Below, piece by piece: positions 10,100 to 52,385 of a DNA stretch of 64,000 bases (the stretch's first letter is position 1; each line of letters opens with the position of its first letter). The notes below the pieces were generated by a model. It was not told where the DNA came from and searched no databases. It saw only the letters and a list, made by a program, of their open reading frames with translations. Position numbers and translations under genes: made by a program. Location: contig JBCDLT010000022.1 of assembly GCA_038745065.1 (NCBI GenBank), positions 19,887 through 83,886 on the forward strand. The letters run 5' to 3'. Origin of the DNA: Pseudomonadota bacterium. GTDB lineage: Bacteria; Pseudomonadota; Alphaproteobacteria; Rhizobiales; JANQQB01.

Positions 10100-11029
10100 T
10101 CAGAAACCGACCCGGTCCCCGCCTTTCAAGGCCAGTGCGGACCGAGCCTCCGCCGGCGTCGCGATTTCGTGGCCGAGATGTTCCACGATCGTGCGAACCT
10201 TGGTGACCTGCTCGGCATTGTCCCTGGCCAGCTGACCGCGCCCGATCATCAAACTGTCCTCCAGCCCGACCCGGACATTGCCGCCAAGGATGACTCCCAT
10301 CGTGCCAAGCGGCATCTGATGGCGTCCGGCGGCGAGCACCGAAAACCGATAATCCTCACCGAGCAGCCGGTCCGCCGTCTGTTTCATGTGCAGCAATTGA
10401 TCGGGATGGGCATCCACCCCGCCGAGGATGCCCAAAACAAACTGGACAAAGACCGGCGGTTCGACATGCCCGGCTTTCAGGTAATGGGCGAGCGTCTGAA
10501 GATGGCCGGTGTCGTAACATTCGAACTCGAAGCGCGTGCCGTTTTCCCGTCCGAAGGCGAGAACCGTCTCGATGTCGGCAAACGTGTTCTTGAACACGAA
10601 GTCCTTCGTCGACTGGAGGAACGGTTCTTCCCAATCGTGTTTCCAGGACGTGTACTTTCCGGCCATCGGAAACGTGCCGAAATTCATCGACCCCATATTC
10701 AGCGAACACATTTCCGGACTGGCGCGGCGCGGTGCGGCCAGCCGGTCCTCCAGCTTCATGTTCGAGCCGCCGCCGGTGGTGATGTTCACCACCGCGTCGG
10801 TCGCCTGCTTGATGCGCGGCAGGAAATCCATGAACACGTCGGGATCCGGGGTCGGCAGGCCGGTTGCCGGATCCCTTGCGTGCAGGTGAAGGATGGCAGC
10901 GCCGGCCTCGGCGGCCCCGATCGCCTGTTCCGCAATCTCGGCCGGCGTCACCGGCAGGTACGGCGACATCGTCGGAGTATGGATCGAGCCGGTGACGGCG
11001 CAGGTGATGATGATCTTGTTGTCGGCCAT
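10100..11029 (-). CDS. 3-keto-5-aminohexanoate cleavage enzyme family protein (BKACE/DUF849)
   Basis: MADNKIIITCAVTGS, ILHLHARD and NITTGGG blocks are typical of BKACE. GAGAGGA SD upstream. Confidence 0.85.
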   Translation of the reverse strand: MADNKIIITCAVTGSIHTPTMSPYLPVTPAEIAEQAIGAAEAGAAILHLHARDPATGLPTPDPDVFMDFLPRIKQATDAVVNITTGGGSNMKLEDRLAAPRRASPEMCSLNMGSMNFGTFPMAGKYTSWKHDWEEPFLQSTKDFVFKNTFADIETVLAFGRENGTRFEFECYDTGHLQTLAHYLKAGHVEPPVFVQFVLGILGGVDAHPDQLLHMKQTADRLLGEDYRFSVLAAGRHQMPLGTMGVILGGNVRVGLEDSLMIGRGQLARDNAEQVTKVRTIVEHLGHEIATPAEARSALALKGGDRVGF

Positions 11030-11214
11030 GATCGGTCCTCTCCCGGGCCATCCGCGTTTTCTGCCGTAGGGCTGCCCGGCGCGGAAATCAGTTTTTCACA
11101 GCCGGATCCCGACGCCCGACACCGTCAGTCTGTTTTGTTTCAGACAGGATCGGACGATCGTGGAGAGATTGCTTCGCGCGTCCGACAGAATTCTTCGCAA
11201 AACCGAACCTGAGC

Positions 11215-16626: not shown

Positions 16627-17522
16627 CCCTTCACGATATGCCGGCATGGCGCAAGGCCGCCGCCACGTACAATTTTGCCTCAGACCATTACGACTCGACG
16701 CCCCTCGCCTTCTGGGATCGCCATGGACAAAGAACCGTCGATCTGATGGGACTGAAAGCTGGCGATTGCGTGCTCGACGTCGGGTGCGGCACGGGCGCCT
16801 CCGCTCTGCCGGCTGCCGAGGCTGTCGGTCGCGACGGCTATGTAGTGGGTATCGATGTGGCGGAGAACATGCTCACCCGTGCCCGGGCGAAAGCGCGCGA
16901 CCGGGGCCTCGACAATGTCGAATTCGACTTGGCGGACATGGCGGATTGCGGACGTGCCGATCAGACTTTCGATGCCGTGATCAGCAGTTTCTCCGTCTTC
17001 TTCATGCCGGACCTGGAAACACAGGTCGCGGAACTCTGGCGTCTCGTGCGCCCCGGCGGGCGCTTGGGCATTACCGTGTGGGGCCCCGACGCGTTCGAAC
17101 CCGGCGCGACGATCTTTTCACAGGAAGTCCGCCGGATCCGGCCGGACATGCCGGATCTCAAGCGGCCGTGGGAACGGCTTACGGAGCCGGAAGCCCTGCG
17201 CGGCCTGATGCGCGACAGCGGCACGGCGGATCCGGTCGTGACCACGACAGAACATACCCAGGCGCTTGGAGAGGTCGAGGACTGGTGGACCATCGCGATG
17301 GGCTCTGGGTTTCGTGCCGAGATCGAGCAATTGCATCCGCGGGAGCGCAAGATCGTGAAGCAGCATGTTCTCGCGCGCCTGACCGACCAGAAGGTCGAAG
17401 CCGTCGCGGCCCACGCTGTGCATGCCGTTGCCCGTAAATCCAGGAGCCGTCAGATCCGAAAGCCGATCGGTTGTGCCGTGCGCCCGCACAGCAGAACCTC
17501 AAGCGAGGCCGTCACCGATTGA
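16623..17522 (+). CDS. Class I SAM-dependent methyltransferase
   Basis: Motif I VLDVGCGTGA and a post-I acidic loop (GIDVAENM). The start is GTG 16623 or ATG 16638. The Arg-rich 100 upstream codons of track ORF 16320..17522 look non-coding. Confidence 0.8.
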   Translation: MTLHDMPAWRKAAATYNFASDHYDSTPLAFWDRHGQRTVDLMGLKAGDCVLDVGCGTGASALPAAEAVGRDGYVVGIDVAENMLTRARAKARDRGLDNVEFDLADMADCGRADQTFDAVISSFSVFFMPDLETQVAELWRLVRPGGRLGITVWGPDAFEPGATIFSQEVRRIRPDMPDLKRPWERLTEPEALRGLMRDSGTADPVVTTTEHTQALGEVEDWWTIAMGSGFRAEIEQLHPRERKIVKQHVLARLTDQKVEAVAAHAVHAVARKSRSRQIRKPIGCAVRPHSRTSSEAVTD

Positions 17523-18765
17523 CCTGGTTCTGCGCAAATCCCGCCATGGTGTTGTAATCGCCGACAATGGCTCGCAATTCATCCGGCGTCGCAACGTCGT
17601 GCAGATCCTCGAATCCGTCCGGAGCCCGCTGCTCGACCAGGTCGATCACCCGCTCCGGCCCGCCTTTACGGTTGAGGCGGACGATCTCCGCGGTAGCCGG
17701 GCGGCGCAGGTTGTCATAGGCGGCGAGCGCTTCCGGCCCATCCTTAGCCGACAAAAGATCAGCGAGCGCGATCGCGTCCAGCACCGCCTGGCTCGCGCCA
17801 TTGGACCCGACCGGATACATCGGATGGGCGGCATCGCCGAGCAAGGTGACGCGGCCGTCAGTCCAGCGATCGAGCGGGTCCCGATCGCACATCGGGTAGA
17901 CGTAGAATTCCGGGGTGGCGCGGATCAACGCCTCGATATCGAGTTCGGGCAGCGAAAACACGCCGGTGACATGCGCCATCACGTCGTCCAGGCGTCCCGG
18001 CTTCGACCAGTCGTCGCGATGCGGGATCGGCGTCGACCCGTCGCCGAGACTGGCGCAGATAACCCAGTTCATCAGCGTCTTGCCCGGATGTCGCTGCGGA
18101 TCATTGAAGATCGGATAGAGAACCAGCTTCGCGGCCATGCCACCGGCAATAATCATCGTGCGTCCGTCGAGAAACGGATCCCACCAGGTGGCGCCACGCC
18201 ACATCAGCACACCATTCCAGCTCGGATCGCCCTGGTCGGGATGGTAGTGCCGCCGAACGGTGGAATGAATGCCGTCGGCTCCGATGAGGATCGAACCGGG
18301 AACCCTAGTCTCGGCGCCCTCGCGATCGGCGAAAACGCCTTCGACATTCGTGTCGGTCTGGGAAAACCGCACCAGGCGCTGGCCGGCATGGATGCAATCA
18401 GCGCCGAGCCGTTCGACTGCAACATCGAACAGCGTCCTTTGCAGCTTGCCGCGGTGAATGGAAAATTGCGGCACATCGTATCCGGCTGCGAGACCGCGCG
18501 GCTGGCGCAGAATATCCTGGCCGCCCGCTGCCTTGTAGATCAATTCACTGGTGCGGATACCGACCGCGTCAAGGCGATCCAGAAGCCCGAGACCGGCCAG
18601 TTCCCGGATGGCATGCGGCAACGTGTTGATGCCGACCCCGAGTTCGCGGACTTCCGACGCCTGCTCGAAGACATGGGCCTTGATGCCCCGGGCGTGGAGC
18701 GCCAGCGCAAGCGTCAGCCCGCCAACCCCGGCGCCTGCAATGATGACCGCGTCTTTCGTCTGCAT
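17512..18765 (-). CDS. FAD-dependent aromatic-ring monooxygenase (group A flavoprotein hydroxylase)
   Basis: GxGxxG (IIAGAGVGGLTLA), the LLGDAAHPMYPVGSNGA fingerprint, and length about 417 aa. Confidence 0.85.
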   Translation of the reverse strand: MQTKDAVIIAGAGVGGLTLALALHARGIKAHVFEQASEVRELGVGINTLPHAIRELAGLGLLDRLDAVGIRTSELIYKAAGGQDILRQPRGLAAGYDVPQFSIHRGKLQRTLFDVAVERLGADCIHAGQRLVRFSQTDTNVEGVFADREGAETRVPGSILIGADGIHSTVRRHYHPDQGDPSWNGVLMWRGATWWDPFLDGRTMIIAGGMAAKLVLYPIFNDPQRHPGKTLMNWVICASLGDGSTPIPHRDDWSKPGRLDDVMAHVTGVFSLPELDIEALIRATPEFYVYPMCDRDPLDRWTDGRVTLLGDAAHPMYPVGSNGASQAVLDAIALADLLSAKDGPEALAAYDNLRRPATAEIVRLNRKGGPERVIDLVEQRAPDGFEDLHDVATPDELRAIVGDYNTMAGFAQNQVNR

Positions 18766-18796
18766 GTCAGTTCGCCTTGTGCGATTCCCGGGACGT

Positions 18797-19633
18797 TCAG
18801 GACGCGTCCGGATTCAACAGATGGTTTACAAGGGCGCTCTCCGGTTCGGTCAGGCCGTCGATGACATCGAAATGATGCCGGTCCGGCTCCTCGACCGTGA
18901 GCGTCGCTGCGCCGCAGCCCTTCCAGACATTGGCGAGAAGGGCGTTCAAGCGAATGAACTCGGAGCGTTCGCCCGCCCCGACCCAGCATGTCAGGCGCGC
19001 GTTCTCGACCGGGTCGCACAGGACAGGACTTTCAGCCCGTGCCTCCTCGGCATCGATGTGTAAAGTGTCGTTGAGCTCGGTGCGCATGATCGGGCGCAAG
19101 TCATGGACACCGGATATCGAGACGACATGCCGAATGCGGTTCCGGATCGCATCAGGCAAAACGACGTCCGCGCACAGCATGCGGCTGGCGAGATGGCCGC
19201 CCGCTGAATGACCGGTCAGGAATATCGGACCGTCAATCGCCTCCGCACCATGAACCAGCATGGCGGCGATTTCCGTCGTCATGGTCCGGATGCGAGCGTG
19301 GGGTGCGAGTGTATAGCTGGGCATGGCGACCGCGTAACCGCGGCCGAGGGGTCCGGCAGCAAAATGCGACCAGACGGATTTGTCGAACCGCCTCCAGAAG
19401 CCGCCATGAACGAAGACGACCAGACCGGCCGGCTGTGCCTCAGGCAGGAAAAGGTCATAGCGGTTGCGCGGCGCGTCACCATAGGCGATGTCGAACCTGA
19501 CGCGACCTGCAGACTGCATGGTTTCGCGGAAGCGTGCCGCTTGCTCTACCCAGCGGTCGGGCCAGGAATCGCCGTTCGGGATGTTGGGGCCGTTCGCATA
19601 GGCATCGTCCCAATCTTCGATCCGCCAGAGCAT
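18797..19633 (-). CDS. Alpha/beta hydrolase, arylformamidase/esterase-like (HGG-type)
   Basis: Oxyanion HGG motif (VFVHGGFW) and nucleophile elbow GHSAGGH. The start was moved to ATG 19633 (MLWRIEDW). Confidence 0.8.
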   Translation of the reverse strand: MLWRIEDWDDAYANGPNIPNGDSWPDRWVEQAARFRETMQSAGRVRFDIAYGDAPRNRYDLFLPEAQPAGLVVFVHGGFWRRFDKSVWSHFAAGPLGRGYAVAMPSYTLAPHARIRTMTTEIAAMLVHGAEAIDGPIFLTGHSAGGHLASRMLCADVVLPDAIRNRIRHVVSISGVHDLRPIMRTELNDTLHIDAEEARAESPVLCDPVENARLTCWVGAGERSEFIRLNALLANVWKGCGAATLTVEEPDRHHFDVIDGLTEPESALVNHLLNPDAS

Positions 19634-19831: not shown

Positions 19832-20275
19832 ATGGAGCTGATGCAGGGAGTTACGACAGCCACTGACGGACTGGACGGTGTCGCCTGGAATGTCGTCGGC
19901 CACACCTATACGCCGAAGCTGCTCTCCGACAACGCCTTCCTCTGGCACGCCCACATTCCCGATGGCACGTTCGTGCCGCCGCACATCCATCCAATGCAGG
20001 ACGAATGGATCGTCATGCTGACAGGCAACCTGGAAGTCGAGTTCGGACCGGAGGTCGCCAAGGCCGGACCGGGCGACACGATCCGCATGCCGATGGGCAA
20101 ACCGCACGGGATCTTCAACCGGTCCGGCAGCGACGCGACCTGTATGTTCGGGGTTGCGCCGAGCCGTAAGCTGTTCGACCTGTTCCACGCGCTTCACAAC
20201 GTCACCGACCCGGCGGAACTGGTCCGCATTTCAGCCCTGCACGAAGTGGATTTCCTGCCGCCGCCCGACGCCTGA
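19832..20275 (+). CDS. Cupin domain protein (metal-binding HxH...E...H present)
   Basis: Cupin motif 1 PPHIHPMQDEWIVMLTG and motif 2 GPGDTIRMPMGKPHGIFN. Confidence 0.8.
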   Translation: MELMQGVTTATDGLDGVAWNVVGHTYTPKLLSDNAFLWHAHIPDGTFVPPHIHPMQDEWIVMLTGNLEVEFGPEVAKAGPGDTIRMPMGKPHGIFNRSGSDATCMFGVAPSRKLFDLFHALHNVTDPAELVRISALHEVDFLPPPDA

Positions 20276-20426
20276 CCGTCTCCACCGACCCGGGCCGGCG
20301 TCGTGCGCCCGTGTCGCTTTTCCGGTCTTGACAGCGACCTATGAAACCGCACGATTTCGGTCAATCGTCCGGTTCGGATGCCGCTCATCCGAACTTCGGC
20401 TTACATTTGCCCGTGGAGGCATTCCC

Positions 20427-21290
20427 ATGCGCTTCGAATCTCCCACAACCGTTCAGGACGCGGTCGGTCTCCTGGCCGCGGAAACCGGTCTGTCACGCCT
20501 GCTTGCCGGCGGCACGGACGTGCTTGTGCAATTACGATCGGGTTTCGTCGAGCCTGACCTCGTCGTCGATATCAAACGCATTGCCGGCATGCGCGATGTC
20601 GTGCCGGAAGGCGGCGGATACCGGATCGGTGCGGCCGTATCGGGCGCGGAACTCGGCGCCCATGACGGGGTTCGCGGGCTTTGGCCGGGTGTGGTCGAGG
20701 CGCTGGAACTGATCGGCTCCACCCAGATCCAGGGCCGCGCGACGCTTGCCGGCAATCTTTGCAACGGCTCGCCGGCAGCCGACAGCGTCCCGGCGATGTT
20801 TGCCGCCGACGCCCGGGTGACGGTCGCCGGTCCGGGCGGCGAGCGTACCGTGCCGGTCATGTCCATCCCTGTCGGGCCCGGAAAGACGTCGCTCGCCCGA
20901 TCGGAATTCATCACCGCCATCCACCTGCCGGCGCGCCCGGACCGGTCATCGGACGCCTATCTGCGGTTCATTCCGCGCACCGAGATGGACATTGCGGTCG
21001 CTTCGGCCGGAGTGAGCCTGGAACTCGAACCGGACGGCACCTGTCGCGCGGCCCGGGTTGCGTTGGGCGCCGTTGCGCCCACGGTCGTGCTCGTTGAAGA
21101 TGCCGCAGCGGCACTTGTCGGAACCCGTCTGGAAGAGGGTGACCTGAAAACCCTGGCAGAGGCCTGTTCGGCGGCTTGCAATCCGATCGACGACAAGCGC
21201 GGGACAATCGAGTTCCGGCGCGACGTCGCCGCGGTGCTTGCCCGGCGCGCTGCCCTCATCGCCTATGAACGTGCGGGGGGAACACAATGA
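20427..21290 (+). CDS. Xanthine dehydrogenase/CoxM-family FAD-binding medium subunit
   Basis: GGAGG lies 7 nt upstream of ATG 20427. FAD_binding_5-type block LLAGGTDVLVQL. Confidence 0.85.
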   Translation: MRFESPTTVQDAVGLLAAETGLSRLLAGGTDVLVQLRSGFVEPDLVVDIKRIAGMRDVVPEGGGYRIGAAVSGAELGAHDGVRGLWPGVVEALELIGSTQIQGRATLAGNLCNGSPAADSVPAMFAADARVTVAGPGGERTVPVMSIPVGPGKTSLARSEFITAIHLPARPDRSSDAYLRFIPRTEMDIAVASAGVSLELEPDGTCRAARVALGAVAPTVVLVEDAAAALVGTRLEEGDLKTLAEACSAACNPIDDKRGTIEFRRDVAAVLARRAALIAYERAGGTQ

Positions 21291-21763
21291 GCCGCATTCA
21301 CGTCAACACCAGCGTCAACGGCGACGCACTCGACTTTTTGTGCGAGCCCAACGAGACGCTGCTCGATGCCCTGCGCAACCGGCTTGGGCTGACCGGGGCA
21401 AAAGAGGGCTGCGGCACCGGCGATTGCGGCGCCTGCAGCGTGACGCTCGACGGCAGCCTGGTCTGTGCCTGCCTGGTGCTGGCGGCGGAAACCGAGGGCC
21501 GCGAAGTCGGTACGGTCGAGGGTCTTGCCGACGGCGACCATCTGCACCCGCTGCAGGAAAAGTTCCTGGAACATGCGGCGCTGCAATGCGGGGTCTGTAC
21601 CCCCGGGATTCTGGTCGCCGCGAAGGCGCTGCTCGACCGGAATCCGGATCCGGACGAGACAGAAGTCCGCTATTGGTTAGCCGGCAACCTTTGTCGCTGT
21701 ACCGGGTATGACAAGATCATTCGCGCGGTGCTCGACACCGCCGCCGACCTGCGGGAGGCCTGA
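21287..21763 (+). CDS. (2Fe-2S)-binding small subunit of the molybdo-hydroxylase
   Basis: Two cluster motifs: CGTGDCGACSV and QCGVCTPG...CRCTGY. The start overlaps the upstream stop (ATGA). Confidence 0.9.
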   Translation: MSRIHVNTSVNGDALDFLCEPNETLLDALRNRLGLTGAKEGCGTGDCGACSVTLDGSLVCACLVLAAETEGREVGTVEGLADGDHLHPLQEKFLEHAALQCGVCTPGILVAAKALLDRNPDPDETEVRYWLAGNLCRCTGYDKIIRAVLDTAADLREA

Positions 21764-21764
21764 C

Positions 21765-24011
<2,247 letters not shown>

Positions 24012-24015
24012 CGCC

Positions 24016-24261
24016 ATGGTCAAGGTGACGATCTGGGGATCGCTGCAATCGGCCACGGACGGGGCTGAGGCGGTCGAGGTCGAGGCGCGCACGACCCGCG
24101 AATTGCTGGATCGTCTGGCCGAAGCCTATCCGGGTCTGAAGCCGCAGATCGAGCGCGGCGTTTCGGTGGCAATCGACGGTGAAATCTATCGCGACGCCTG
24201 GTTCACGCCGATCCGCGCGGATAGCGAGGTTATCCTGATGCCGTATATGGCGGGAGGGTAG
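24016..24261 (+). CDS. MoaD/ThiS-family ubiquitin-like beta-grasp protein with a C-terminal Gly-Gly
   Basis: 81 aa ending ...LMPYMAGG. The layout (MVKVTIWGSL...ELLDRLAEAYPGL...VAIDGE...) matches sulfur-carrier proteins. It starts 4 nt after the large-subunit stop. Confidence 0.75.
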   Translation: MVKVTIWGSLQSATDGAEAVEVEARTTRELLDRLAEAYPGLKPQIERGVSVAIDGEIYRDAWFTPIRADSEVILMPYMAGG

Positions 24262-24460
24262 GTCTACCGGCTCGGCTCGAAACTACCCATTGGGGTATGT
24301 TGACCAAAAATACACCTCTGTTTGGATTTTGTGTATGAATGATTGTATTTTTTTCTTTTGCGCGTAATAATTCTGTATGTGCGGCTCCCAACCGGTCTGA
24401 TTGCCGCCGCTTCGGCGGCAAACGCAATCCGGTTTGTCACCCAGGGTCCGAACCCGTCGC

Positions 24461-25237
24461 ATGCAGAAACCTGAATCCAGCCCAAACCGAACCCTTCCTA
24501 TCCTCTCGACCGCAACCGCCTTCGGTTTGCCGATCCTCATTGTGTTCGTGCAAAAGTATTATTTCGCTCCGACACCTCTTGCGGTCGCGGCCCACCCGGC
24601 CGTTCTGATCGCAGAGGTGCTCGGCAGGAGCCTCCCTGCTCTGGTGATCGGCCTTTTGCTCATGCGTCTCCTTGGCGCATGGCCATGGAACCGCAGCCTG
24701 ACCAGTACCGCATTTCTTGCTGCCACCCCGACCGCCCTATTGGTTGTCATTGCACAGAGCGGCGAAAGGCATTTTGCCGAAACGGAGCGTCTCTGGATGG
24801 AATGCGCCAGCGTCCGGGTAGCCCTGCCACTCGGAGCAATTGGCGACATATATGATCGCCCAACTCACAGATACGCCGTGGCCTTGCGCGGTGACGACGC
24901 CTTCTCGGTGACCTGCCTGCCCCTGCCCGAACCGGAAGTGCATACTTTTCTTGAGAATTACGTCTCGCGCCTGGCTTCCATGCAAGCAAACATCACACTG
25001 TCGACTTTCGAACGGACCGTCCGCTTCGGCAATCCCGCCATCGAGGCCCAGGGGACGGTCGAGGGCGAGGAGGCCGGGCGCGTCGTTAGAAAACCCTATT
25101 TCGTCATTGTCTCGCAGGCGGGCGGAGAGCTCTTGACCGCGACGTCGACGATGCCGGATGCCATGCGGTCCGATTTCATTGAATTCGAGATCGACGGCAA
25201 TGTGGAGGCAGCCACAACGCAGCTGAAAACGGACTGA
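24461..25237 (+). CDS. Hypothetical membrane protein (three N-terminal hydrophobic helices plus a ~150-aa soluble domain)
   Basis: ORF 24401..25237 trimmed to ATG 24461. No family recognised. It has more A/T-ending codons than flanking genes. Confidence 0.5.
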   Translation: MQKPESSPNRTLPILSTATAFGLPILIVFVQKYYFAPTPLAVAAHPAVLIAEVLGRSLPALVIGLLLMRLLGAWPWNRSLTSTAFLAATPTALLVVIAQSGERHFAETERLWMECASVRVALPLGAIGDIYDRPTHRYAVALRGDDAFSVTCLPLPEPEVHTFLENYVSRLASMQANITLSTFERTVRFGNPAIEAQGTVEGEEAGRVVRKPYFVIVSQAGGELLTATSTMPDAMRSDFIEFEIDGNVEAATTQLKTD

Positions 25238-25395
25238 AGGATACAACCTGCTTCCCCAGATTAAAATTCTGCGTTGTAATTCTCTTGAATACACTTTATA
25301 AGGTTATCGACAGACTTTGCAGCCGGAATCCGGTCTGGTTCGCGGATCCGATGACCGAATCCACCCGTTCCTCCTTGGGACAAACGGAGCATCCA

Positions 25396-26028
25396 ATGCG
25401 TCCAAACATGCTACGATCTTGGCTTAGGACACTTGGCCTGCCGGTGGTGGCCTGTCTTGGGCTCGTCGTCCTGATCTCGGCACCAGCACCTGCCGTTTCG
25501 GAGGAGGACAACAATTACGTTCTGACCTTCACCTGCGGTCAGGCCTTTGTGATGTTTCCTGATGGCGTGACTCTGGAAGAAGATTTTCTGTTCGATGAAC
25601 TGGAAATGCGCGTCGGCGTCGGGGAGGAAAGCCTCCATGCCGCAGCTTGCATCGGGCATTTCGATGACAAGGCCATAATGCGCGATCTGCGCGAAATGCT
25701 CGGCGGGCCTTTTGGCTTCGATAGAATTGTGGAATCCGAGGAATCTTTTGCCTTTGAGGCCTTCGGTCGGCCATCTCTCGATGTACGCGGCGTCATGTCG
25801 TTCACCGAGGACGGCGCTAAAGTGTTCAAGGGATTCAGGGCCTCCATTACCCGCCCTCATGAAACCAGAGACCTCGTATTGTTCAGTCTGGAGCCAGACA
25901 GTGTGGATTCGTTCGGATTCCACTTGTTTGGGAAGGTCGAGGCTACGGCAGCGCCGAATCCAGTCCGGCCCGATCCTGAGCCCGACAATCACTCACCTGG
26001 CGATACGACGTCCGGCGACGCCCTTTGA
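25396..26028 (+). CDS. Hypothetical secreted acidic protein
   Basis: ACGGAG lies 6 nt upstream of ATG 25396. Signal peptide MRPNMLRSWLRTLGLPVVACLGLVVLISAPAPAVS/EED. No family recognised. Confidence 0.5.
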   Translation: MRPNMLRSWLRTLGLPVVACLGLVVLISAPAPAVSEEDNNYVLTFTCGQAFVMFPDGVTLEEDFLFDELEMRVGVGEESLHAAACIGHFDDKAIMRDLREMLGGPFGFDRIVESEESFAFEAFGRPSLDVRGVMSFTEDGAKVFKGFRASITRPHETRDLVLFSLEPDSVDSFGFHLFGKVEATAAPNPVRPDPEPDNHSPGDTTSGDAL

Positions 26029-26110
26029 TCGCCGGATACCCCAAGACCAATATCTGGGTTTTCCAAGAATCGCTTTGCCAGCAGCATTCCTCACATGCCG
26101 GCAACGGCGT

Positions 26111-27283
26111 TCAAATCTTCCCGCCGAGTGCCCGATAGACCTTCATGCCGGGACGGCCGGTGACCGGCAGCCCTAACGCCGCTTCGGCCTTGCGAATGCC
26201 GGCGCGTGTTGCCGGGCCGACCTTGCCGTCGGCTTCACCGACGTCGAAGCCCCTCTTGTTCAGGCGTTTCTGAAGATCGAGCCGCTGTTCGCGCGACAGG
26301 CCGAGATCGTTGGTCGGCCAGGCTGTGCGGAATTCCTTGCCGCCGCGCAGGCGATCCGACAGATGAGAGATCGCAAGGGCGTAGGATTCGGCAAGGTTAT
26401 AGGAATAGATCGCGTCGAAGTTCCGGAAGACCAGGAAGGCCGGCCCGTTCCTGCCCGCCGGCACCAGGAGGCCCGCCGTACCCGATCCGGTCAATTTGCC
26501 ACCGCCGGCCTTCTTCAGACCGCGTTTTGACCACGTCGCGACAGAGGCCTTGGCCTTGCGACCGGTCGGGCCGCTGTACCCGGACGGCAGACGGACCTCG
26601 TAACCCCAGGCCTGCCCCGACCGCCAGCCGGAGCGGTTCAGGTAATTGGCGGTGGAGCCAAGCGCGTCGGGCACGGAGCGCACGAGATCGCGACGTCCGT
26701 CCTTGTCGAAATCGACCGCCAGCCGGCGATAGGTCGAGGGAATGAACTGGGTCTGGCCGAATGCGCCCGCCCAGGATCCCTTCAAGTCCTTCATGCGCAG
26801 GTCGCCGCGATCGACGATCTTCAACGCCGAGACCAGTTCTCCGCGCCAGAACTTCGTGCGCCGGCCGGAACAGGCAAGATTGGCAAGTGCATGCGGGATG
26901 AAAAAGCTTCCCTGGTTTTCGCCGTAGTTGCTTTCCACGCCCCATAGAGCAGCAATGACATAGCGGTCCACGCCATAGGTCCGCTCGACCGCCTTGAGCG
27001 TCGAACCGTGCTTCTTCATCATCTTGCGGCCGGTGCGAATGCGGTCGTCATCGACCAGAAAGGCCATGTAATCCCAGATCGGCGTCTTGTATTCCGGCTG
27101 CGCCCGCGAAAACCGCAAGACCTTTTCATCGCGGGCGACATCCGAGAGCGCGGCGTTCACGGTCTTGCGGCTGACTCCGGCCTGGACGGTGCTGGCCTTC
27201 AGACCGTTGACGCAGGCGGAAAAAGACGCCGAGGCAGGCGTGGCGAGAAGAGCACAGGCGGCAGCAATCGCAAGACGCTTCAT
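26111..27283 (-). CDS. Lytic murein transglycosylase (MltB/SLT_2-like) with a C-terminal peptidoglycan-binding domain
   Basis: Signal peptide MKRLAIAAACALLATPASA. Blocks WGVESNYG and GAFGQTQFIPSTY. PG_binding_1-like tail LQKRLNKRGFDVGEADGKVGPATRAGI. Confidence 0.85.
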   Translation of the reverse strand: MKRLAIAAACALLATPASASFSACVNGLKASTVQAGVSRKTVNAALSDVARDEKVLRFSRAQPEYKTPIWDYMAFLVDDDRIRTGRKMMKKHGSTLKAVERTYGVDRYVIAALWGVESNYGENQGSFFIPHALANLACSGRRTKFWRGELVSALKIVDRGDLRMKDLKGSWAGAFGQTQFIPSTYRRLAVDFDKDGRRDLVRSVPDALGSTANYLNRSGWRSGQAWGYEVRLPSGYSGPTGRKAKASVATWSKRGLKKAGGGKLTGSGTAGLLVPAGRNGPAFLVFRNFDAIYSYNLAESYALAISHLSDRLRGGKEFRTAWPTNDLGLSREQRLDLQKRLNKRGFDVGEADGKVGPATRAGIRKAEAALGLPVTGRPGMKVYRALGGKI

Positions 27284-27562: not shown

Positions 27563-30283
27563 CTAGGAAAGGATACCTTTCAACCGATAAAGAACTTCCA
27601 GCGCCTCTCTTGGGGTCATGTCGTCGGGTGCCAGTTCGTCGACGGCCGCGCGCAGGGCGCTTGCCTCGGGGTCCAGCGCCGCGGCTTCCGCCTCATTGCG
27701 CGCCCGCGCGGCGGAGAACAGCGGCAGATCGTCGACAAGCGCGGCCGGACCGGACCGGTCGGTTTCTTCAAGACGGTGCAGAACCTCTTCCGCGCGACCG
27801 ATCACGGATGCCGGCAAGCCGGCCAGTTTGGCCACCTGGATCCCGTAGGAGCGGTCTGCCGCACCCGCGGCGATTTCGTGCAGAAAGACCAGATCGCCCT
27901 TCCATTCCTTGACCTTTACCGTTGCATTGCGGACCCGCGGAAGCCGCTCGGTCAGAGATGTCAATTCATGGTAGTGCGTGGCAAACAGGGCGCGGGACCG
28001 GTTCACCTCATGGAGATGTTCCACCGCCGCCCAGGCGATCGAGAGGCCATCGAATGTCGCCGTGCCGCGGCCGATCTCATCCAGGATTACCAGCGATCGC
28101 TCGGTCGCCTGATTGAGGATCGCCGCCGTTTCGACCATTTCGACCATGAACGTCGAACGCCCGCGGGCGAGATCGTCAGCAGCGCCAACGCGAGAAAACA
28201 GCCGGTCGACAACGCCGACATGCGCAGACCGCGCCGGCACGTAGGACCCGATCTGAGCGAGCAGTACGATCAGGGCATTCTGGCGCAAAAAGGTCGACTT
28301 GCCGGCCATGTTCGGGCCGGTCACGAGCCAGAGGCAACCGCCTTCACCGATAGCCGCGTCCGTCGGCGGACCGAGATCGCAATCGTTGGCGACGAAGGCC
28401 TTGGCCTCTTGGGCGAGGGCCTGTTCGACAACCGGATGGCGGCCGCCTTCGATCCGGAAGACCCGGCTGTTGTCGATTTTTGGCCGGCAATAGCCCCGTT
28501 CGAGCGCAAGGGCGGCGAGCGCGGCCATCAAGTCGAGGTCGGCCAACGCGCCGGCAATTGCCTTCAAGGCCGCCTCGCCGGCCAGGATCGTCTCGCGCAG
28601 GGCCTCGAAGGTTTCGAATTCGATCGCGAGCGCCCGCTCGCCGGCACTGGCAATCTTGGCTTCGAGGCCGGACAGTTCAGTCGTCGAAAACCGGACGGCA
28701 TTGGCCAGCGTCTGGCGGTGGATGAATGTGGCGTTCAGCGGATCCGCCATCATGCGGTCGGCGTGACCGGCCGGCACCTCCACAAAATAGCCGAGCACGT
28801 TGTTGTGCCTGACCTTCAGCGCCCGGATTTCCGCAAGCGCGGCATAGTCCGCCTGCAGGCCGGCAATGATGCCGCGGCTCTCGTCGCGCAGGGCCCTGAC
28901 ATCGTCCAGGTCAGCGTTGAACCCGGATCGCACGAAATTGCCGTCCCTCTTGAGGAGTGGAACATCGTCGGCAAGCGCTGCCGCAAGCCGGTCGGAAAGG
29001 TCCGATGGCGCTGCGGCCAGCGCCGCCTGCGCGGCTGCAATGTCATTGGGCAGATCCGTTGCAGCACCTGACAGCGTCGCCAGCACCGTCGCGGCACAAT
29101 CCAGTCCGACCCGGATGGTGATCATGTCACGCGGCCCGCCGCGGTTAAGGGCAAGGCGGGCAAAAGCCCGGGCGATGTCCGGCGCCGCCTTCAGGTCGCT
29201 GCGTATCCGATCCGTCAGGGTCGGATCGTTGTGAAAATGCGCGGCAGCCTCGAGCCGCTCAGCGATCGTGGCTTCGTTGCAGGACGGGTTGTTCAAGCGC
29301 TCCGCCAGGCGCCGCGCTCCCGGCCCGGTGACTGTACGGTCGATGGCATGGAACAGGCTGCCTTTGCGCTCACCCGACAGCGTCCGCATGATTTCAAGAC
29401 TGGCGCGCGTCGCGGGGTCGATGGCCAGAATCTCGGTCGCGGTCTCCCGCCGTGGCGGGTCCAGCGGCGCGTTCTCGCCGAGTTGCGTCTTGTCCATATA
29501 GGCGACGATGGCCGACGCCGCGCCGAGCTCAGCACGCGAGAAGCTGCCGAAACCCGCTAGGGCCTTCACGCCGTAATAGGCCTGAAGACGGCTTTCCGCG
29601 GTCGCACCGTCGAAAAAGGCCGCCGGCATCGGCGCGACGGCCGCCGCCAATCCGTCGACGAGCAGGCGGATCTCGTCTTCGTCATAGAGCGCTTCAGGCA
29701 GGATGATTTCACTGGCATCGATCATCGACAATCGCGTGCCCAGGCCGGACGTCCCGGTCTCGGTGACCTGGAACAGGCCGGTCGACATGTCAGTCCAGGC
29801 GATGCCGAAAGCGCCATCACGCCCCGCGCCGCGCATCCGTGTCACCGCACACAGGAAATTGTTGCGGTCGACGGCGAGCAGACTGTCTTCCGTGATCGTG
29901 CCGGGCGTCACCAGGCGAACGACATCGCGACGGACAACCGCCTTGTAGCCGCGTTTCTTGGCCTCCGACGGGTCTTCCAGCTGTTCGCAGACCGCCACCC
30001 GATGCCCTTGTGCGATCAGGCGCTGGAGATAATCGTCGGCTGCGTGCACCGGCACGCCGCACATGGGGATGTCGGCGTCCTTGTGTTTGCCGCGCCGGGT
30101 CAGCGTGATGTTGAGGGCGCGCGACGCAATCTCAGCGTCCTCGAAAAACAGTTCGTAGAAATCGCCCATCCGATAGAACAGGAGGCAATCGGGATTGGCT
30201 TCCTTGATCTGAAGATATTGCGCCATCATCGGCGTCTGCCGGGCGGCGGCGTTGTCGGTCGCTGGGACGGTCCTTTTGTTCAT
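27563..30283 (-). CDS. mutS: DNA mismatch repair protein MutS
   Basis: 906 aa. N-terminal [11 protein letters not shown], Walker [14 protein letters not shown], and DEIGRGT. Confidence 0.95.
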
Positions 30284-30465
30284 AGGTGGTCCGCGGATGT
30301 TCCGGGGTTTGCCGGATTCATGGGTCTGCCCGTTTCATGCGCGCACCGCGCCGATTTTCGAAAAATTGTTTCGTCACAGAGGGAAAGGGCTTGTCCTTGA
30401 GACACGCTATACCGCACGGTAGGGTCTTCCGCACCCCCTATAAGAACTCCTAAAAAGGCCAGTCT

Positions 30466-32745
30466 ATGCCCGCGACCGACAAGTCCGCCGACAGCGTTAT
30501 CGCATTTACCGAACAGGAAGCGCTCCAATTCCACCAGCAGGGCCGTCCCGGCAAGATCGAGATGACGCCCACAAAACCGATGGCCACGCAGCGCGACCTG
30601 TCGCTGGCCTATTCTCCCGGCGTCGCGGTGCCGGTCCGCGCGATCGCCGAAGACCCGACCAAAGCGCACGATTACACCGCCAAAGGCAATATGGTGGCCG
30701 TGATTTCCAACGGTACGGCGATCCTCGGCCTCGGCAATCTGGGGGCGCTGGCATCCAAGCCGGTGATGGAAGGCAAGGCCGTGCTTTTCAAGCGCTTCGC
30801 GGACATCGACTCCATCGATCTGGAAATCGATACGTCGGACGTCGACGAATTCGTCAATTGCGTGCGTTATCTCGGCCCGGCCTTCGGCGGCATCAACCTT
30901 GAAGACATCAAGGGACCGGACTGTTTCATCATCGAGCAGCGACTGCGCGAATTGCTCGATATCCCGGTGTTTCACGACGACCAGCACGGAACGGCGATCA
31001 TCACCGCGGCCGGGTTCATCAATGCGCTCGACATCGCGGGCAAGTCGATGGGCGATATCAAGGTGGTGTGCAACGGCGCCGGGGCGGCAGGAATTGCCTG
31101 CGTGGAACTGATCAAGGCGATGGGCGTGCCGCATGACAATGTGATCATGCTCGACAGCATCGGCGTGATCTACAAGGGCCGTCAGGAACGCATGGACCAG
31201 TGGAAATCAGCGCACGCGGCCGAAACATCGGACCGGACGCTGGCGGACGCGATGAATGGCGCGGATGTTTTCCTCGGACTTTCGGTTGCCGGCGCGGTCA
31301 CTGCGGACATGGTCCGGTCCATGAAGAGCAATCCGATCCTGTTCGCCATGGCCAACCCGGATCCCGAAATCACAGTCGAAGAAGCGGAATCGGTGCGCGA
31401 CGACATCATCATCGCCACCGGCCGGTCCGACTATCCGAACCAGGTCAACAATGTGCTCGGCTTTCCCTACATCTTTCGCGGTGCCCTCGACGTGCAGGCG
31501 ACGACGATCAACGAGCCGATGAAAATCGCAGCCGCCCAGGCGCTAGCGGACCTCGCGCGCCTCGACGTTCCCGACGAAGTGGCGGCCGCCTATCGCGGCG
31601 TGCGGCCGAAATACGGACCGAAATACATCATTCCGGTGCCGTTCGATCCGCGCCTGATCTCTCATATCCCGCCGGCGGTTGCGCAGGCGGCAATGGATTC
31701 CGGCGTCGCCAAGCGTCCCATTGTCGACATGGACGCCTATCGCGGCCAGCTTTCCGGCAGGCTCGACAGGATCGCCGGCACCCTGCAACGCATCTTCTCC
31801 AAAATCCGGCAAGCTCCGAAACGGGTCGTTTTTGCGGAAGGCGAAGAAGAGACGGTTATCCGCGCGGCCTCGTCTTTTGTCGCCCAACGGCTCGGCCATG
31901 CGATCCTGATCGGTCGGGAGCACCAGATCCGGGAAACCGCCAAGGCAGCCGGCATCGAGATCCGCGACGGCATGACGATCCTGAACGCGCGGCTGTCGGA
32001 CAAGACCGTTGAATATGCGCAATTCCTGTTCGCCCGCCTGCAGCGGAAGGGTTTCCTTTTGCGCGACTGCCAGCGTCTCATCAACACCGACCGGAATCAT
32101 TTCGGCGCGACCATGGTCGCCGTGGGCGATGCGGATGCAATGGTCTCCGGCGTGACGCGGAATTATTCGGTCGTGCTGCAAGACGTCCAGCGCGTCATCG
32201 ACCCGAAACCCGGGCATGAAGTCATCGGTGTTTCCATGGCGCTGGCTCCGGGCCGGACCGTGCTGGTTGCCGATACCGCAGTGCACGACATGCCGAGTTC
32301 GCAAGAACTCGCCAACATCGCGGTCGAAGCCGCGCATGTGGCCCGCAAACTCGGTTTCGAACCGCGGGTTGCCATGCTTGCCTATGCCACGTTCGGCCAC
32401 CCTCCCGGCGAACGGGCGGAACGGGTCCAGGAAGCCGTGCGCATCCTGGACGGGCGTCGGGTCGACTTCGAATATGACGGCGAAATGGCGGCCGATGTGG
32501 CGCTGAACATGGACATCATGGCGCAATATCCGTTCTGCCGCCTGTCGGGCCCGGCCAACGTGCTCGTCATGCCGGCGTTCCACTCGGCCTCGATCTCAAC
32601 GAAGATGCTGCAGGAACTCGGCGGCGCCACGGTGCTCGGACCGCTGCTGGTCGGGCTCGACAAGCCGGTGCAGATCGTGCCGCTCGGCGCCAGCGATTCC
32701 GACATCGTCAACATGGCGGCGATCGCCGCCTACGAAGTCACCTGA
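30466..32745 (+). CDS. maeB: NADP-dependent malic enzyme (malic enzyme plus PTA-like domain)
   Basis: 759 aa with the typical MaeB architecture: an N-terminal malic/NAD-binding domain and a C-terminal phosphotransacetylase-like domain. Confidence 0.95.
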   Translation: MPATDKSADSVIAFTEQEALQFHQQGRPGKIEMTPTKPMATQRDLSLAYSPGVAVPVRAIAEDPTKAHDYTAKGNMVAVISNGTAILGLGNLGALASKPVMEGKAVLFKRFADIDSIDLEIDTSDVDEFVNCVRYLGPAFGGINLEDIKGPDCFIIEQRLRELLDIPVFHDDQHGTAIITAAGFINALDIAGKSMGDIKVVCNGAGAAGIACVELIKAMGVPHDNVIMLDSIGVIYKGRQERMDQWKSAHAAETSDRTLADAMNGADVFLGLSVAGAVTADMVRSMKSNPILFAMANPDPEITVEEAESVRDDIIIATGRSDYPNQVNNVLGFPYIFRGALDVQATTINEPMKIAAAQALADLARLDVPDEVAAAYRGVRPKYGPKYIIPVPFDPRLISHIPPAVAQAAMDSGVAKRPIVDMDAYRGQLSGRLDRIAGTLQRIFSKIRQAPKRVVFAEGEEETVIRAASSFVAQRLGHAILIGREHQIRETAKAAGIEIRDGMTILNARLSDKTVEYAQFLFARLQRKGFLLRDCQRLINTDRNHFGATMVAVGDADAMVSGVTRNYSVVLQDVQRVIDPKPGHEVIGVSMALAPGRTVLVADTAVHDMPSSQELANIAVEAAHVARKLGFEPRVAMLAYATFGHPPGERAERVQEAVRILDGRRVDFEYDGEMAADVALNMDIMAQYPFCRLSGPANVLVMPAFHSASISTKMLQELGGATVLGPLLVGLDKPVQIVPLGASDSDIVNMAAIAAYEVT

Positions 32746-33671: not shown

Positions 33672-34271
33672 ATGCGGAAAGCGACGATCGCGCGCCAAAC
33701 CAACGAGACACGGATCGAAGTCTCTGTCGATCTCGACGGAACCGGTCGGGCCGATATCGGAACCGGTGTCGGGTTCTTCGATCACATGCTCGACCAGGTG
33801 GCACGGCACGCGTTGATAGACCTTTCGGTACAAGCCGACGGTGATCGTCACATCGACGACCACCACACGACGGAGGATGTCGGCATCGCGCTCGGCCAAG
33901 CGGTGCGTTCCGCTCTTGGTGATCGCAAGGGCATTGTCCGGTACGCGGACGTGCACCTGCCGATGGACGAAACGCTGACACGGTGTGCGATCGATGTGTC
34001 CGGGCGGCCGTTTCTGGTGTTCGACGTCGCATTTTCCAGCGACAAGATCGGAACCTTCGATACCGAGCTGGTGCAGGAATTCTTCCAGGCATTCGCGATG
34101 AATGCCGGCGTCACGCTGCACATTGCAACGCTCACCGGCAGCAACAACCATCACATTGCGGAATCCTGTTTCAAGGCGCTGGCGCGAACGCTGCGCGCCG
34201 CCATTGAAATCGATCCGCGGCAGGCAGACCGCATCCCGTCCACCAAAGGCACGCTCGGAGAGGCTTCGTGA
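33672..34271 (+). CDS. hisB: Imidazoleglycerol-phosphate dehydratase
   Basis: [10 protein letters not shown]-type N-terminus, and [14 protein letters not shown] and NNHHIAES metal motifs. Confidence 0.95.
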
Positions 34272-34762
34272 AAACCTATACCGTTCACATGAAAGCGCCG
34301 TCGGGTGACCGGACGAAGGATGCCTTGGACGCGGTCTTCATCCCCGAAGGCTTCTCCCTTTGGGCCTTTCTGTTTCCGATTCCATGGATGCTGATCAACC
34401 GGATGTGGCTGATCCTGATGACGTTCATCGTGGTCACGGGCTTTCTGGAATACGGCGCGAACTTTTTCGGACGCATTATCCCGGGTGTCTTCCTGATTCT
34501 GGCAACTGGCCTGTTCGCCTTCGAAGCCTACGCCCTGCGACGATGGACGATCGAGGGCAAGGGATATCGCCTCGTCGGTATCGCCAGCGGCCGCTCGCTT
34601 GCCGACGCCGAACAGCGGTTCTTCGAAACATGGAGCGATAGCGCGCCCGGATCGGGCCGGATCATCCGGCCGATGCCCACTGAACCGTCCGGGCACCCGG
34701 GGCGCCCGTCCGCAGAACGCCCGGTAACCGGCCTTTTCCCCCGTCCCGAGGGTGCCCGGTGA
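34268..34762 (+). CDS. DUF2628-like membrane protein embedded in the his operon
   Basis: GTGA overlaps at both ends (with the hisB stop and the hisH start). Motif [19 protein letters not shown] and hydrophobic helices. Confidence 0.75.
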
Positions 34763-35409
34763 CAACCGCGATCATCGATTACGGGTCCGGCAATCTGCGA
34801 TCCGCCCAAAAGGCCTTCCAGCGCGCGGCGCGCGATATCGGTCTCGCATCCGACATACTCGTGACCAGCGACCCGTCAATGGTCTCGCAGGCCGATCGCG
34901 TCGTCCTGCCAGGCGTCGGCGCGTTTGCCGATTGCCGATCGGGTCTTTCGGCGGTGGACGGGATGGAGGATGCCCTCATCGAGGCCGTCATCGAACGCGG
35001 ACAACCGTTTTTCGGCATCTGTGTCGGCATGCAATTGATGGCGTCCCGCGGTCTTGAAAAAACCGTCACGGAGGGCTTTGCATGGATTCCCGGCGACGTC
35101 GTCGAGATCCGGCCCGACGACGCATCGCTGAAGATACCGCATATGGGCTGGAACACGATCGAGGTCCGGGGCAGCCATGCCCTGCTCGACGGATTGCACA
35201 CCGGACCTGACGGCCTGCATGCCTATTTCGTGCATTCCTACCAGTTGCAAGCCACAGACGAGGACCAAGTACTCGCAGAAACCGGCTATGGCGGCCCGGT
35301 AACCGCCATCGTCGGTCGCGACACAATGATCGGAACCCAGTTCCATCCGGAAAAGAGCCAGGCGCTGGGTCTTGGTCTCATTGCCAACTTCCTCGCCTGG
35401 AAGCCCTGA
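34759..35409 (+). CDS. hisH: Imidazole glycerol phosphate synthase, glutamine amidotransferase subunit
   Basis: [19 protein letters not shown] (catalytic Cys) and QFHPEKS. Confidence 0.95.
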
Positions 35410-39453: not shown

Positions 39454-39960
39454 TCAGGCCGGGGCAGGTGCGCCGCGCGCCTCGCTCAATGCCCGCGCGA
39501 AGGCATGGGCGAAACTTTCCTTGTCCGGCGGATTGAGAAACGTGCCGACGTCGAGGGATCGGCCATGGGAGGTCAGCGTGATCCGCACGACGCCCTCGTC
39601 TTCGATACGATGCACCGAAAGGCGTGCCCAATACGGATTGAATTCATGGGTCCGGACCTTGCCGGCAGCGGACACCTGGCGAATTGTCACGGTCGCGGGA
39701 AACACCTCCACTTCCTCGAATGCCCGCGCGGCCCGGTAATTCAAGTGAAAGGCCAGCCAGATCAAAAGTACATCGAGCCCGAAAAACAGGAAAACCGGCC
39801 AGGCGCCCAGCAACAGGAAGGGAAGGCCGGACGCGAAGCAGATGAGACCGATGCACAGCATCAGGACAAAGAAACCCTGGCGTCCCAACGACCGATAGGG
39901 CGTGAGGACGGCGCTGAAAATCGGTGAGTCTGCCCCTCCAGGCGGATTGTCGTCTGCCAT
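39454..39960 (-). CDS. DUF2244-like integral membrane protein
   Basis: Start moved to ATG 39960 (MADDNPPGG). Two TM helices are followed by the NPYWARL block typical of the family. Confidence 0.7.
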   Translation of the reverse strand: MADDNPPGGADSPIFSAVLTPYRSLGRQGFFVLMLCIGLICFASGLPFLLLGAWPVFLFFGLDVLLIWLAFHLNYRAARAFEEVEVFPATVTIRQVSAAGKVRTHEFNPYWARLSVHRIEDEGVVRITLTSHGRSLDVGTFLNPPDKESFAHAFARALSEARGAPAPA

Positions 39961-51407: not shown

Positions 51408-51643
51408 CCAAGTTGGTGCATTGCAGCGTGAAGTCCGTGCATCTTACCACCGCATCTGATATGATGGTAACCTGCTTGGGATTTAAGCCCTATAAACGGT
51501 TTGGCTTTCGATAGGCTTTGCACTATCTATTGTGTCCGGACGGCAGATGCTTCCGGGCCTTTTCCGCCGCCATGACCGCCGAACCCGAAGCAAGCAGTGA
51601 CGCGGCGCGCAAACTCGCACGAGGATCCTGACCGGACAGCACC

Positions 51644-52381: not shown

Positions 52382-52385
52382 CACG

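Follow-up and report, generated by a model that had tools for sequence, protein, structure and literature searches.

The superinfection exclusion proteins Imm and Sp of phage T4 are inner-membrane and periplasm-facing proteins that act against incoming phage, and Sp reportedly inhibits a phage peptidoglycan hydrolase. Known periplasmic inhibitors of lysozyme and of transglycosylases are exported and carry cysteine pairs; Ivy and MliC/PliC are small, Sec-exported disulfide proteins, and some of them inhibit MltB-type enzymes. Here, we describe a pair of genes, open reading frame A (ORF A) and ORF B, that occupies positions 24262 to 26110 of a 64,000-nucleotide stretch of the Rhizobiales contig JBCDLT010000022.1 (this whole stretch is referred to below as the window) and that resembles each of these systems in part. 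The overall best explanation, to which we assign a probability of about 0.5, is that ORF A and ORF B form a lineage-restricted pair of tandem paralogues with a putative mechanism at the envelope interface. Its evolutionary component, in which the pair is stably placed in a small clade and the secreted copy undergoes cassette-like allele exchange, is well supported.

Relatives of the pair were found on three metagenome contigs: L002 is near-identical to the window, L001 is ~9 to 10% diverged in the flanks, and L003 has ORF B only. The gene order ThiS-A-B-MltB-MutS is kept in L001 and L002, and for no gene did the comparative inferences draw on more than four sequences. A single distant relative of ORF A could be detected, P0006, an unannotated protein of 244 amino acids encoded on metagenome contig SRR23272279_12157 (locus L084), which is 30% identical to ORF A over 219 residues (HMMER E value, 6e-23).

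The interval (1849 bp) consists of two plus-strand ORFs with spacers of 199, 158, and 82 bp. ORF A (24461–25237, plus strand; NCBI MEM1047024.1, hypothetical protein) encodes a predicted inner-membrane protein of 258 amino acids with a new domain. We take ATG 24461 as its start, since the in-frame TTG further upstream (24401) loses the frame in L001 through a 1-nt indel. Hydropathy analysis gave three peaks (residues 12 to 30, 48 to 71, and 80 to 98), corresponding to predicted transmembrane (TM) helices at residues about 12 to 31, 45 to 68, and 80 to 99 (24494–24757, plus strand), followed by a soluble domain of ~155 amino acids (residues 100 to 258; 24758–25234, plus strand; isoelectric point [pI], 4.7) that is predicted to be periplasmic. 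The loop between TM2 and TM3 carries the motif R-L-x-G-x-W-P-W-x-R-S, invariant between ORF A and P0006, and TM2, this loop, and TM3 together form the best-conserved stretch between the two proteins, which suggests that the membrane part of ORF A is more than a mere anchor. Positive-inside charge counts in both ORF A and P0006 predict that the N-terminus lies inside and the C-terminus outside, an arrangement that would place the N-terminus of ORF A in the cytoplasm and its soluble domain in the periplasm.

ORF B (25396–26028, plus strand; 210 amino acids) is predicted to be an exported, N-terminally truncated paralogue of ORF A. Its ATG is preceded at 6 nt by a GGAG Shine-Dalgarno sequence (25383–25386), and the protein has a single N-terminal hydropathy peak at residues 13 to 31, after R2, R7, and R11. 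These features make up a predicted signal peptide (residues 1 to 35; 25396–25500, plus strand) that ends in SAPAPAVS/EED and is the positional equivalent of ORF A TM3. The mature part is acidic (pI 4.3) and comprises a domain (25501–25950, plus strand) with invariant cysteines C47 and C85 and the motifs C-G-x-x-x-V-x-F-P-x-G and F-G-R-P-S-L-[DE]-x-x-G, followed by a C-terminal tail (25951–26025, plus strand) that is rich in Pro and Asp, is little conserved between alleles, and is probably disordered. ORF B was also considered as a lipoprotein; its lipobox-like VVAC is VVIC in family member P0005, the cysteine lies in the middle of the hydrophobic core, and lipidation is unlikely. The exact product of ORF B in the window is absent from a collection of 15 billion proteins, in which the ORF A product is present (as an NCBI protein); the deposited annotation of this metagenome-assembled genome may lack ORF B or give it a different start. 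Most of the architecture given in the initial annotation therefore stands: two same-strand ORFs at these positions, three N-terminal hydrophobic helices and a soluble domain of ~150 amino acids in ORF A, a good Shine-Dalgarno sequence, a signal peptide and an acidic mature part in ORF B, and membership of no recognized family.

The central result is that the two genes are related to each other. Comparison of the ORF A and ORF B family profiles with hhalign placed residues 109 to 251 of ORF A on residues 41 to 184 of ORF B (E value, 6e-4; 136 columns). The soluble domains by themselves scored 30.1, against a mean of 12.3 for 347 column shuffles (standard deviation [SD], 2.4; maximum, 22.3), and in domain-only Smith-Waterman comparisons all nine pairs lay above their shuffles (z scores of 4.2 to 7.9). 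Direct BLASTP of the ORF A soluble part against ORF B gave no match, and the profile signal appeared once P0006 had joined the ORF A alignment. P0006 matched ORF B by BLASTP with an E value of 4e-4 and the L001 allele of ORF B with one of 9e-6; the alignment with ORF B starts within TM3 of P0006, over the ORF B signal peptide, and W-x-R-[ST] precedes it in both proteins. These comparisons show that the soluble domain of ORF A and the whole mature domain of ORF B are homologous and that A and B are tandem paralogues. Taken with the position of TM3 over the signal peptide, the homology seen by profile, BLASTP, and Smith-Waterman analysis further indicates that ORF B is a copy of an ORF A-like gene that has lost the N-terminal part and whose TM3 was turned into a Sec signal peptide.

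The shared A/B domain, of ~145 residues, appears to be previously undescribed; its hallmarks are a pair of invariant cysteines plus the motifs C-G-x-x-x-V-x-F-P-x-G and F-[GK]-[NR]-P-[SA]-x-[ED]-x-x-G. An alignment of six sequences (A4) has 13 invariant columns, including a W, two L, both cysteines, V-x-x-P-x-G after the first cysteine, and F-x-x-P-x-x-x-x-x-G; in ORF A, the two cysteines that are invariant in all six sequences are C115 and C152. Both copies of the domain are predicted to be periplasmic and probably disulfide bonded. Since the ORF B domain is predicted to be exported and appears homologous to that of ORF A, it lends support to the positive-inside topology proposed for ORF A.

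The conservation pattern indicates that ORF A and ORF B are genuine coding genes under purifying selection. Ratios of nonsynonymous to synonymous substitution rates (dN/dS) against L001 were 0.017 for ThiS, 0.038 for MltB, 0.22 for ORF A, and 0.35 for ORF B, the last ranging from 0.24 to 0.39 across comparisons. Substitutions relative to the relatives fell at the first, second, and third codon positions in ratios of 20/9/45 for ORF A and 52/39/93 for ORF B, a third-position excess in each case, and ORF length is constant in every copy (A, 258 codons; B, 210 codons, n = 4). An antisense ORF runs far along ORF B and is interrupted by a stop codon in L001; with the third-position excess lying in the plus-strand frames, antisense ORFs were rejected as the true genes. 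That A and B are chance ORFs, or pseudogenes decaying within a long spacer, might still be suspected from the lack of a clear Shine-Dalgarno sequence before ORF A, the missing exact match to the ORF B product in the protein collection, and the want of a confident predicted fold. Such a reading is nonetheless effectively refuted by the pattern of conservation and has a negligible probability in our estimate: dN/dS is well below 1 with a third-position excess, the 258 and 210 codons are kept in all copies, even across an allele with a synonymous rate (dS) above 1, and the homology among A, B, and P0006 is significant.

Divergence within ORF B is concentrated in one block. Between the window and L001, identity is 60.7% over positions 25561 to 26110 (plus strand), an allele-replacement block comprising ORF B codons ~57 to 210 and the 82-bp spacer up to the MltB stop codon, compared with 0.83 to 0.93 elsewhere, 86 to 93% on either side of the block, and 90.5% in ORF A; the maximum chi-square value (320) falls at 25565 to 26112. 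Inside the block dS is 1.30, dN is 0.38, and dN/dS is 0.29; outside it, over codons 1 to 56 of ORF B and the flanking DNA, dS falls to 0.2 to 0.4. L003, which is about as far from the window as L001, has the window-type ORF B allele. The mature part of ORF B thus exists as two deeply diverged alleles, bounded by the gene's own conserved 5' part and by mltB. Relaxation or positive selection alone would be insufficient to account for saturated dS with continued purifying selection, which points instead to replacement by a functional allele from a distant lineage. We infer that the donor of the divergent allele was an unsampled, more remote lineage and that transfer took place by homologous recombination, with the conserved 5' part of ORF B and mltB as the probable recombination anchors. 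Two other sources were rejected. No DNA tract indicative of gene conversion from ORF A was seen, and no reverse-transcriptase-like ORF of a diversity-generating retroelement was seen near the pair, although no dedicated profile search was made for one. The variable region of such retroelements is short, and a 550-bp block that reaches into a noncoding spacer fits poorly with it.

This pattern has a superficial likeness to polymorphic toxin cassettes, in that the 5' part of ORF B is conserved and its 3' part is exchanged as a block. Unlike such cassettes, however, the swapped block holds no immunity gene and ends in the 82-bp spacer, no toxin domain was found, and the neighboring gene, ORF A, does not covary with ORF B and is its paralogue. 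The interval had originally been read as a horizontally acquired, two-gene envelope module lying between the MoaD-like gene and mltB, for example, a toxin/immunity-like or surface-modifying pair. The toxin/immunity suggestion is not supported by these comparisons: paralogy of A and B is not expected of a toxin and its immunity protein, ORF A (90.5%) does not follow the ORF B block (60.7%), and no toxin, immunity, glycosyltransferase, or acyltransferase domain was found in either protein with Pfam, NCBIfam, or PADLOC at an E value of ≤1.

Horizontal acquisition draws support from composition. The window as a whole has a G+C content of 62.8%, and that of the interval is 56.2%, essentially the lowest among all 1849-bp segments of the 64 kb (mean, 0.627; SD, 0.018), of which 0.13% are as low. 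At third codon positions (GC3), ORF A has 0.683 (z score, −2.2; P of 0.002 given its own amino acid sequence) and ORF B has 0.616 (z score, −4.7), a value below all 49 reference ORFs and reached in 0 of 3,000 simulations. The reference was a frame-aware set of 49 ORFs of the window (mean, 0.746; SD, 0.028; range, 0.680 to 0.811), from which antisense shadow ORFs were kept out, their inclusion understating the deviation of the islet. Noncoding DNA makes up 439 of the 1849 bp (24%); with a G+C content of 0.48 to 0.55, it resembles the other spacers of the window and contributes to the dip. The window is rich in long antisense shadow ORFs that have GC1 above GC3, lack a Pfam match, and mimic low-GC3 genes (e.g., 10169–11212 [+], 51527–52384 [−], 39505–39927 [+], 34151–34765 [−], and 17422–18864 [+]). 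The true genes at these sites appear to be on the opposite strand, and other scanned ORFs of the window without a Pfam match mostly resemble such shadows rather than genes. In a high-GC genome, they can corrupt composition controls.

The claim of a compositionally distinct islet of ~1.8 kb is thus borne out, and the orphan distribution of the pair and the horizontally mobile type of locus in which its sole distant relative lies would also suit an acquired islet. Against recent acquisition, the ORF list for the 20- to 30-kb region of the window holds no integrase, transposase, or other mobility gene, only short, chance-level direct or inverted repeats flank the islet, and no tRNA adjoins it (the single tRNA of the window is at 757–833); the initial annotation, too, had seen no transposase, integrase, or flanking repeat. 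The pair also occupies the identical position in both related contigs that span the site, L002 and the ~10% diverged L001. More distant relatives share no synteny at this place, and no empty ThiS-MltB site was found among the relatives scanned. GC3 of ORF A is 0.68 in the window and 0.69 in L001; for ORF B the values are 0.62 and 0.63, with 0.60 to 0.63 over all copies, including the divergent allele. Since GC3 is equally low in all copies across saturated synonymous divergence, it is a long-standing property and not the mark of a fresh import. The pair is therefore better regarded as long-standing content of the flexible genome than as a recent mobile insertion, and what remains of the original reading is a two-gene module that is envelope directed, atypical in composition, and linked by paralogy. 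We consider the acquired-islet explanation improbable as first framed, and an older acquisition by an ancestor of the small clade is possible.

The family is very rare. Among 5.8 billion cluster representatives there were two matches to ORF A and three to ORF B, all from the related contigs, and an exhaustive HMMER search of 1.84 billion representatives (~15 billion proteins) added one further member, P0006, for about seven family members over both searches; all family clusters that were checked are singletons. A profile search with the ORF B alignment found no member beyond P0002 to P0006, scans of the JGI metagenomes and IMG/VR with the A3 and A4 alignments found no further member, and PDB sequence profiles yielded no relative of ORF A or ORF B. 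There was no Pfam, NCBIfam, PADLOC, or PHROGs match at an E value of ≤1 for either protein, the PADLOC models, including the HEC models, matched none of ORF A, ORF B, and P0006, and tblastn against plasmids and phage genomes gave no A/B match. The host lineage is itself thinly sampled, the best MltB being 68% identical among 185,579 species representatives and the best MutS 63% identical in the JGI metagenomes.

The one distant relative lies in a setting associated with defense. In L084, genes for HmaA, a GmrSD-like protein (HEC-05), HmaB, and HmaC, all with very strong PADLOC scores, form a cluster with P0006 at its end. The ATG of P0006 overlaps the hmaC stop codon (ATGA), and the P0006 gene is thus predicted to be translationally coupled to hmaC. 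Hma is a widespread three-gene (helicase-methylase-ATPase) candidate defense operon (PMC8565338), and defense genes are often nested within Hma operons (bioRxiv 10.1101/2024.01.29.577857); neither paper mentions a membrane protein like P0006. The operon in L084:1-12799 looks complete, its HEC-05/BrxU-type GmrSD-like gene being nested between hmaA and hmaB, and P0006 is followed by three unannotated genes for proteins of 136, 209, and 283 amino acids, the last of which matches CBS weakly and has an R-x4-H motif resembling that of HEPN domains. P0006 shares with ORF A the three-TM layout, the RLxGxWPWxRS loop, the two cysteines, and the domain motifs, and, like the window pair, it lies in DNA more AT-rich than its neighbors. 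Unlike the pair, however, P0006 is a single copy coupled to a defense operon, and the neighbors in the window are of housekeeping type. P0006 is itself uncharacterized and lends context, not function.

We propose that the pair is an envelope-interface module that would face a changing outside partner, either a phage component or a periplasm-acting effector of a competitor. In this model, ORF B, free and fast evolving, would supply variable binding, and ORF A, conserved and anchored in the membrane, would serve as the constant partner, acting at or signaling across the inner membrane. Such a role is favored by the deep allelic dimorphism of ORF B, the persistent accessory-type composition of the pair, and the defense-island home of P0006. 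We hold it only tentatively, below even odds, and ahead of the alternatives weighed in this study. Like T4 Imm and Sp, the pair is a small accessory envelope module with a membrane protein and a periplasm-facing protein; unlike them, A and B are paralogous, have no prophage context, and show no similarity to PHROGs families or phage genomes. A more far-reaching form of the proposal, which we think improbable, is that the A/B domain defines a new envelope-level family directed against phage or competitors. In that case the membrane form would serve in exclusion or sensing, either as an accessory protein or on its own, a role to which the translational coupling to hmaC in L084 points, and duplication in the present lineage would have yielded a secreted, cassette-exchanging specificity subunit.

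Several observations weigh against an envelope-interface role. Support for a function comes from a single distant homologue, located in one defense island, and from the way ORF B has evolved, and a single association with Hma is suggestive at most. No ORF B-like partner adjoins P0006, the 136- and 209-amino-acid proteins being unlike ORF B, and tblastn of all L084 island proteins against the window gave no match at an E value of ≤1e-3, so that no Hma was found there. The failure of A and B to match anything in PADLOC, PHROGs, phage genomes, or plasmids points in the same direction, and the rarity of the family may stem in part from sampling combined with fast evolution. No segment of sufficient length reaches a dN/dS of 1; the only ratios close to or exceeding 1 came from pieces of 21 and 35 codons with very few substitutions, so that the data do not establish positive selection, and deep allelic divergence alone is no proof of an arms race. 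Lastly, AlphaFold2 models of ORF B (four-sequence alignment) and ORF A (two-sequence alignment) had predicted local distance difference test scores of 32.7 and 30.9, respectively, and are unreliable; within these models, the secondary-structure elements are colinear in A and B (three strands, a helix, and five to six strands).

Alternatively, A and B may be native, fast-evolving envelope genes whose relatives have diverged beyond detection and that have a local role in the cell wall, for example, with ORF B (and the tethered domain of ORF A) binding or restraining the basic MltB. The dN of ORF A (0.057) is ~3.6-fold that of MltB (0.016), and in the nearest relatives, at 66 to 68% MltB identity, an ORF A orthologue would be near or below the limit of detection. 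ORF B and mltB are convergent with an 82-bp spacer between them, mature MltB is far more basic (pI 10.3) than ORF B (pI 4.3) or the ORF A domain (pI 4.7), and the conserved cysteine pairs of these exported proteins recall those of known inhibitors. Besides size and export, the likeness to Ivy and MliC is one of charge and adjacency, an acidic ORF B adjoining the gene for a very basic MltB. Charge complementarity is common and nonspecific, and the pair, convergent with mltB, is not cotranscribed with it. Unlike Ivy and MliC, the proteins gave no Pfam match at an E value of ≤1 (a search that covered both families if they are in this copy of Pfam-A), and the Ivy loop motif C-K-P-H-D-C is absent.

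Gene neighborhoods offer little further support for such a local role. Around MltB in the 80 nearest species representatives (MltB identity, ≤68%), no MutS, ThiS, CoxL, A, or B was found within 10 kb, so that adjacency to mltB is unconserved outside the small clade and guilt by association does not apply; no transglycosylase neighbors P0006 among the called genes of L084. Fast divergence alone also leaves the low GC3 unexplained. A native role in cell-wall turnover is unlikely in our view, if somewhat less so than an acquired islet, and the paralogous pair with an envelope-interface role remains our preferred explanation.

Each gene of the pair appears to have its own promoter, as a candidate only. 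The region upstream of ORF A (24262–24460, plus strand; G+C content, 0.503) consists of an AT-rich stretch and then a G+C-rich leader and is 82.8% identical to L001, the leader part being almost invariant. The promoter proposed in the initial annotation (TTGACC ... TGtATGAAT) was discarded; its spacer of ~28 nt is too long, and both elements are changed in L001. By eye, a candidate sigma-70-type promoter for ORF A can be placed at 24343 to 24370 (plus strand; TTGTAT-N16-TAATAA), with similar hexamers in L001 (TTGTAA and TATTAA). The A-B spacer (25238–25395, plus strand; G+C content, 0.481) is 84% identical to L001 and contains, ahead of the GGAG at 25383 to 25386, a candidate ORF B promoter, also found by eye, at 25274 to 25302 (plus strand; TTGTAA-N17-TATAAG), of which the −10-like hexamer is conserved in L001 together with the Shine-Dalgarno region. 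ORF B, like ORF A, thus comes after an AT-rich, promoter-like stretch and a leader rich in G+C. A strict consensus promoter scan reported no promoter in the region.

The ORF A leader contains a predicted hairpin (24390–24436, plus strand; AACCGG..GCCGCCG-cttc-GGCGGC..CCGGTT, then a short T run), situated ~130 nt after the ThiS stop codon and 25 nt ahead of the ATG of ORF A. Folding of the 91-nt leader gave −39.3 kcal/mol, with z scores of −3.3 in the window and −2.75 in L001; the single stem substitution between the two, C to T, retains a G-U pair, and the T run is more terminator-like in L001. The hairpin could stabilize the mRNA, attenuate ORF A, and/or terminate the upstream molybdenum-hydroxylase/ThiS operon. 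No significant fold was found in the ORF B leader (z score, 0.0), and with no Rfam match at an E value of ≤1 in either leader, a riboswitch or other known RNA was rejected. The 11-mer CCGGTCTGRTT occurs exactly twice in the 64 kb (0.04 expected), at 24392 to 24402 (plus strand; identical in L001) and at 25330 to 25340 in the A-B spacer, which is 69 and 66 nt before the starts of A and B, respectively; the two copies, noticed post hoc, may mark an operator or leader element common to both genes. Beyond them, the upstream regions of A and B are dissimilar (local score of 18, compared with 16 ± 2.2 for shuffles), and a duplication of A and B that spanned the upstream region was accordingly rejected.

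The scanned genes around the pair match only metabolic, cell-wall, and repair Pfam families. On the 5' side are a cupin gene, a three-subunit molybdenum hydroxylase cluster (FAD, 2Fe-2S, and molybdenum cofactor subunits), and an 81-amino-acid ThiS/MoaD-like gene. In this region (19832–24261), the cupin gene is followed by the CoxM/CoxS/CoxL-type cluster, with overlapping gene ends, and the ThiS/MoaD-like gene comes last; its product, which scores below the NCBIfam cutoffs for MoaD and SAMP1, appears to be a small protein of the sulfur-carrier or ubiquitin-like type, appended to the hydroxylase operon. On the 3' side, on the opposite strand, are genes for an MltB-type lytic transglycosylase and MutS, with a malic enzyme gene further on. 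Neither MltB nor ThiS/CoxL neighbored MutS in 80 MutS-anchored metagenome loci (≤63% identity), where the sole conserved adjacency was maeB-mutS (22 of the 80); in the window, this is the divergent arrangement of mutS and a malic-enzyme gene with malic and PTA domains at 27563 to 32745. Because the other side of mutS (MltB, the islet, ThiS, and CoxL) is unconserved, a synteny breakpoint can be placed just downstream of mutS, ~1.5 kb from the islet.

In sum, this work defines one new, very small protein family with a two-cysteine periplasmic domain in membrane-anchored and secreted forms. As it stands, the pair is an ordinary orphan pair whose evolutionary anatomy is unusually well resolved. 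It offers an example of how a secreted paralogue can arise from a polytopic membrane protein by conversion of a transmembrane helix into a signal peptide, of an accessory gene that has long stayed AT-rich within a GC-rich genome, and of a domain-sized block exchanged between lineages with the gene's conserved 5' part and a neighboring housekeeping gene as anchors. Should the pair modulate MltB, it would represent a new type of periplasmic regulator of cell-wall turnover. Should the link to Hma prove functional, the family would instead provide a new envelope-acting component of defense or exclusion, a class in which few families are known.

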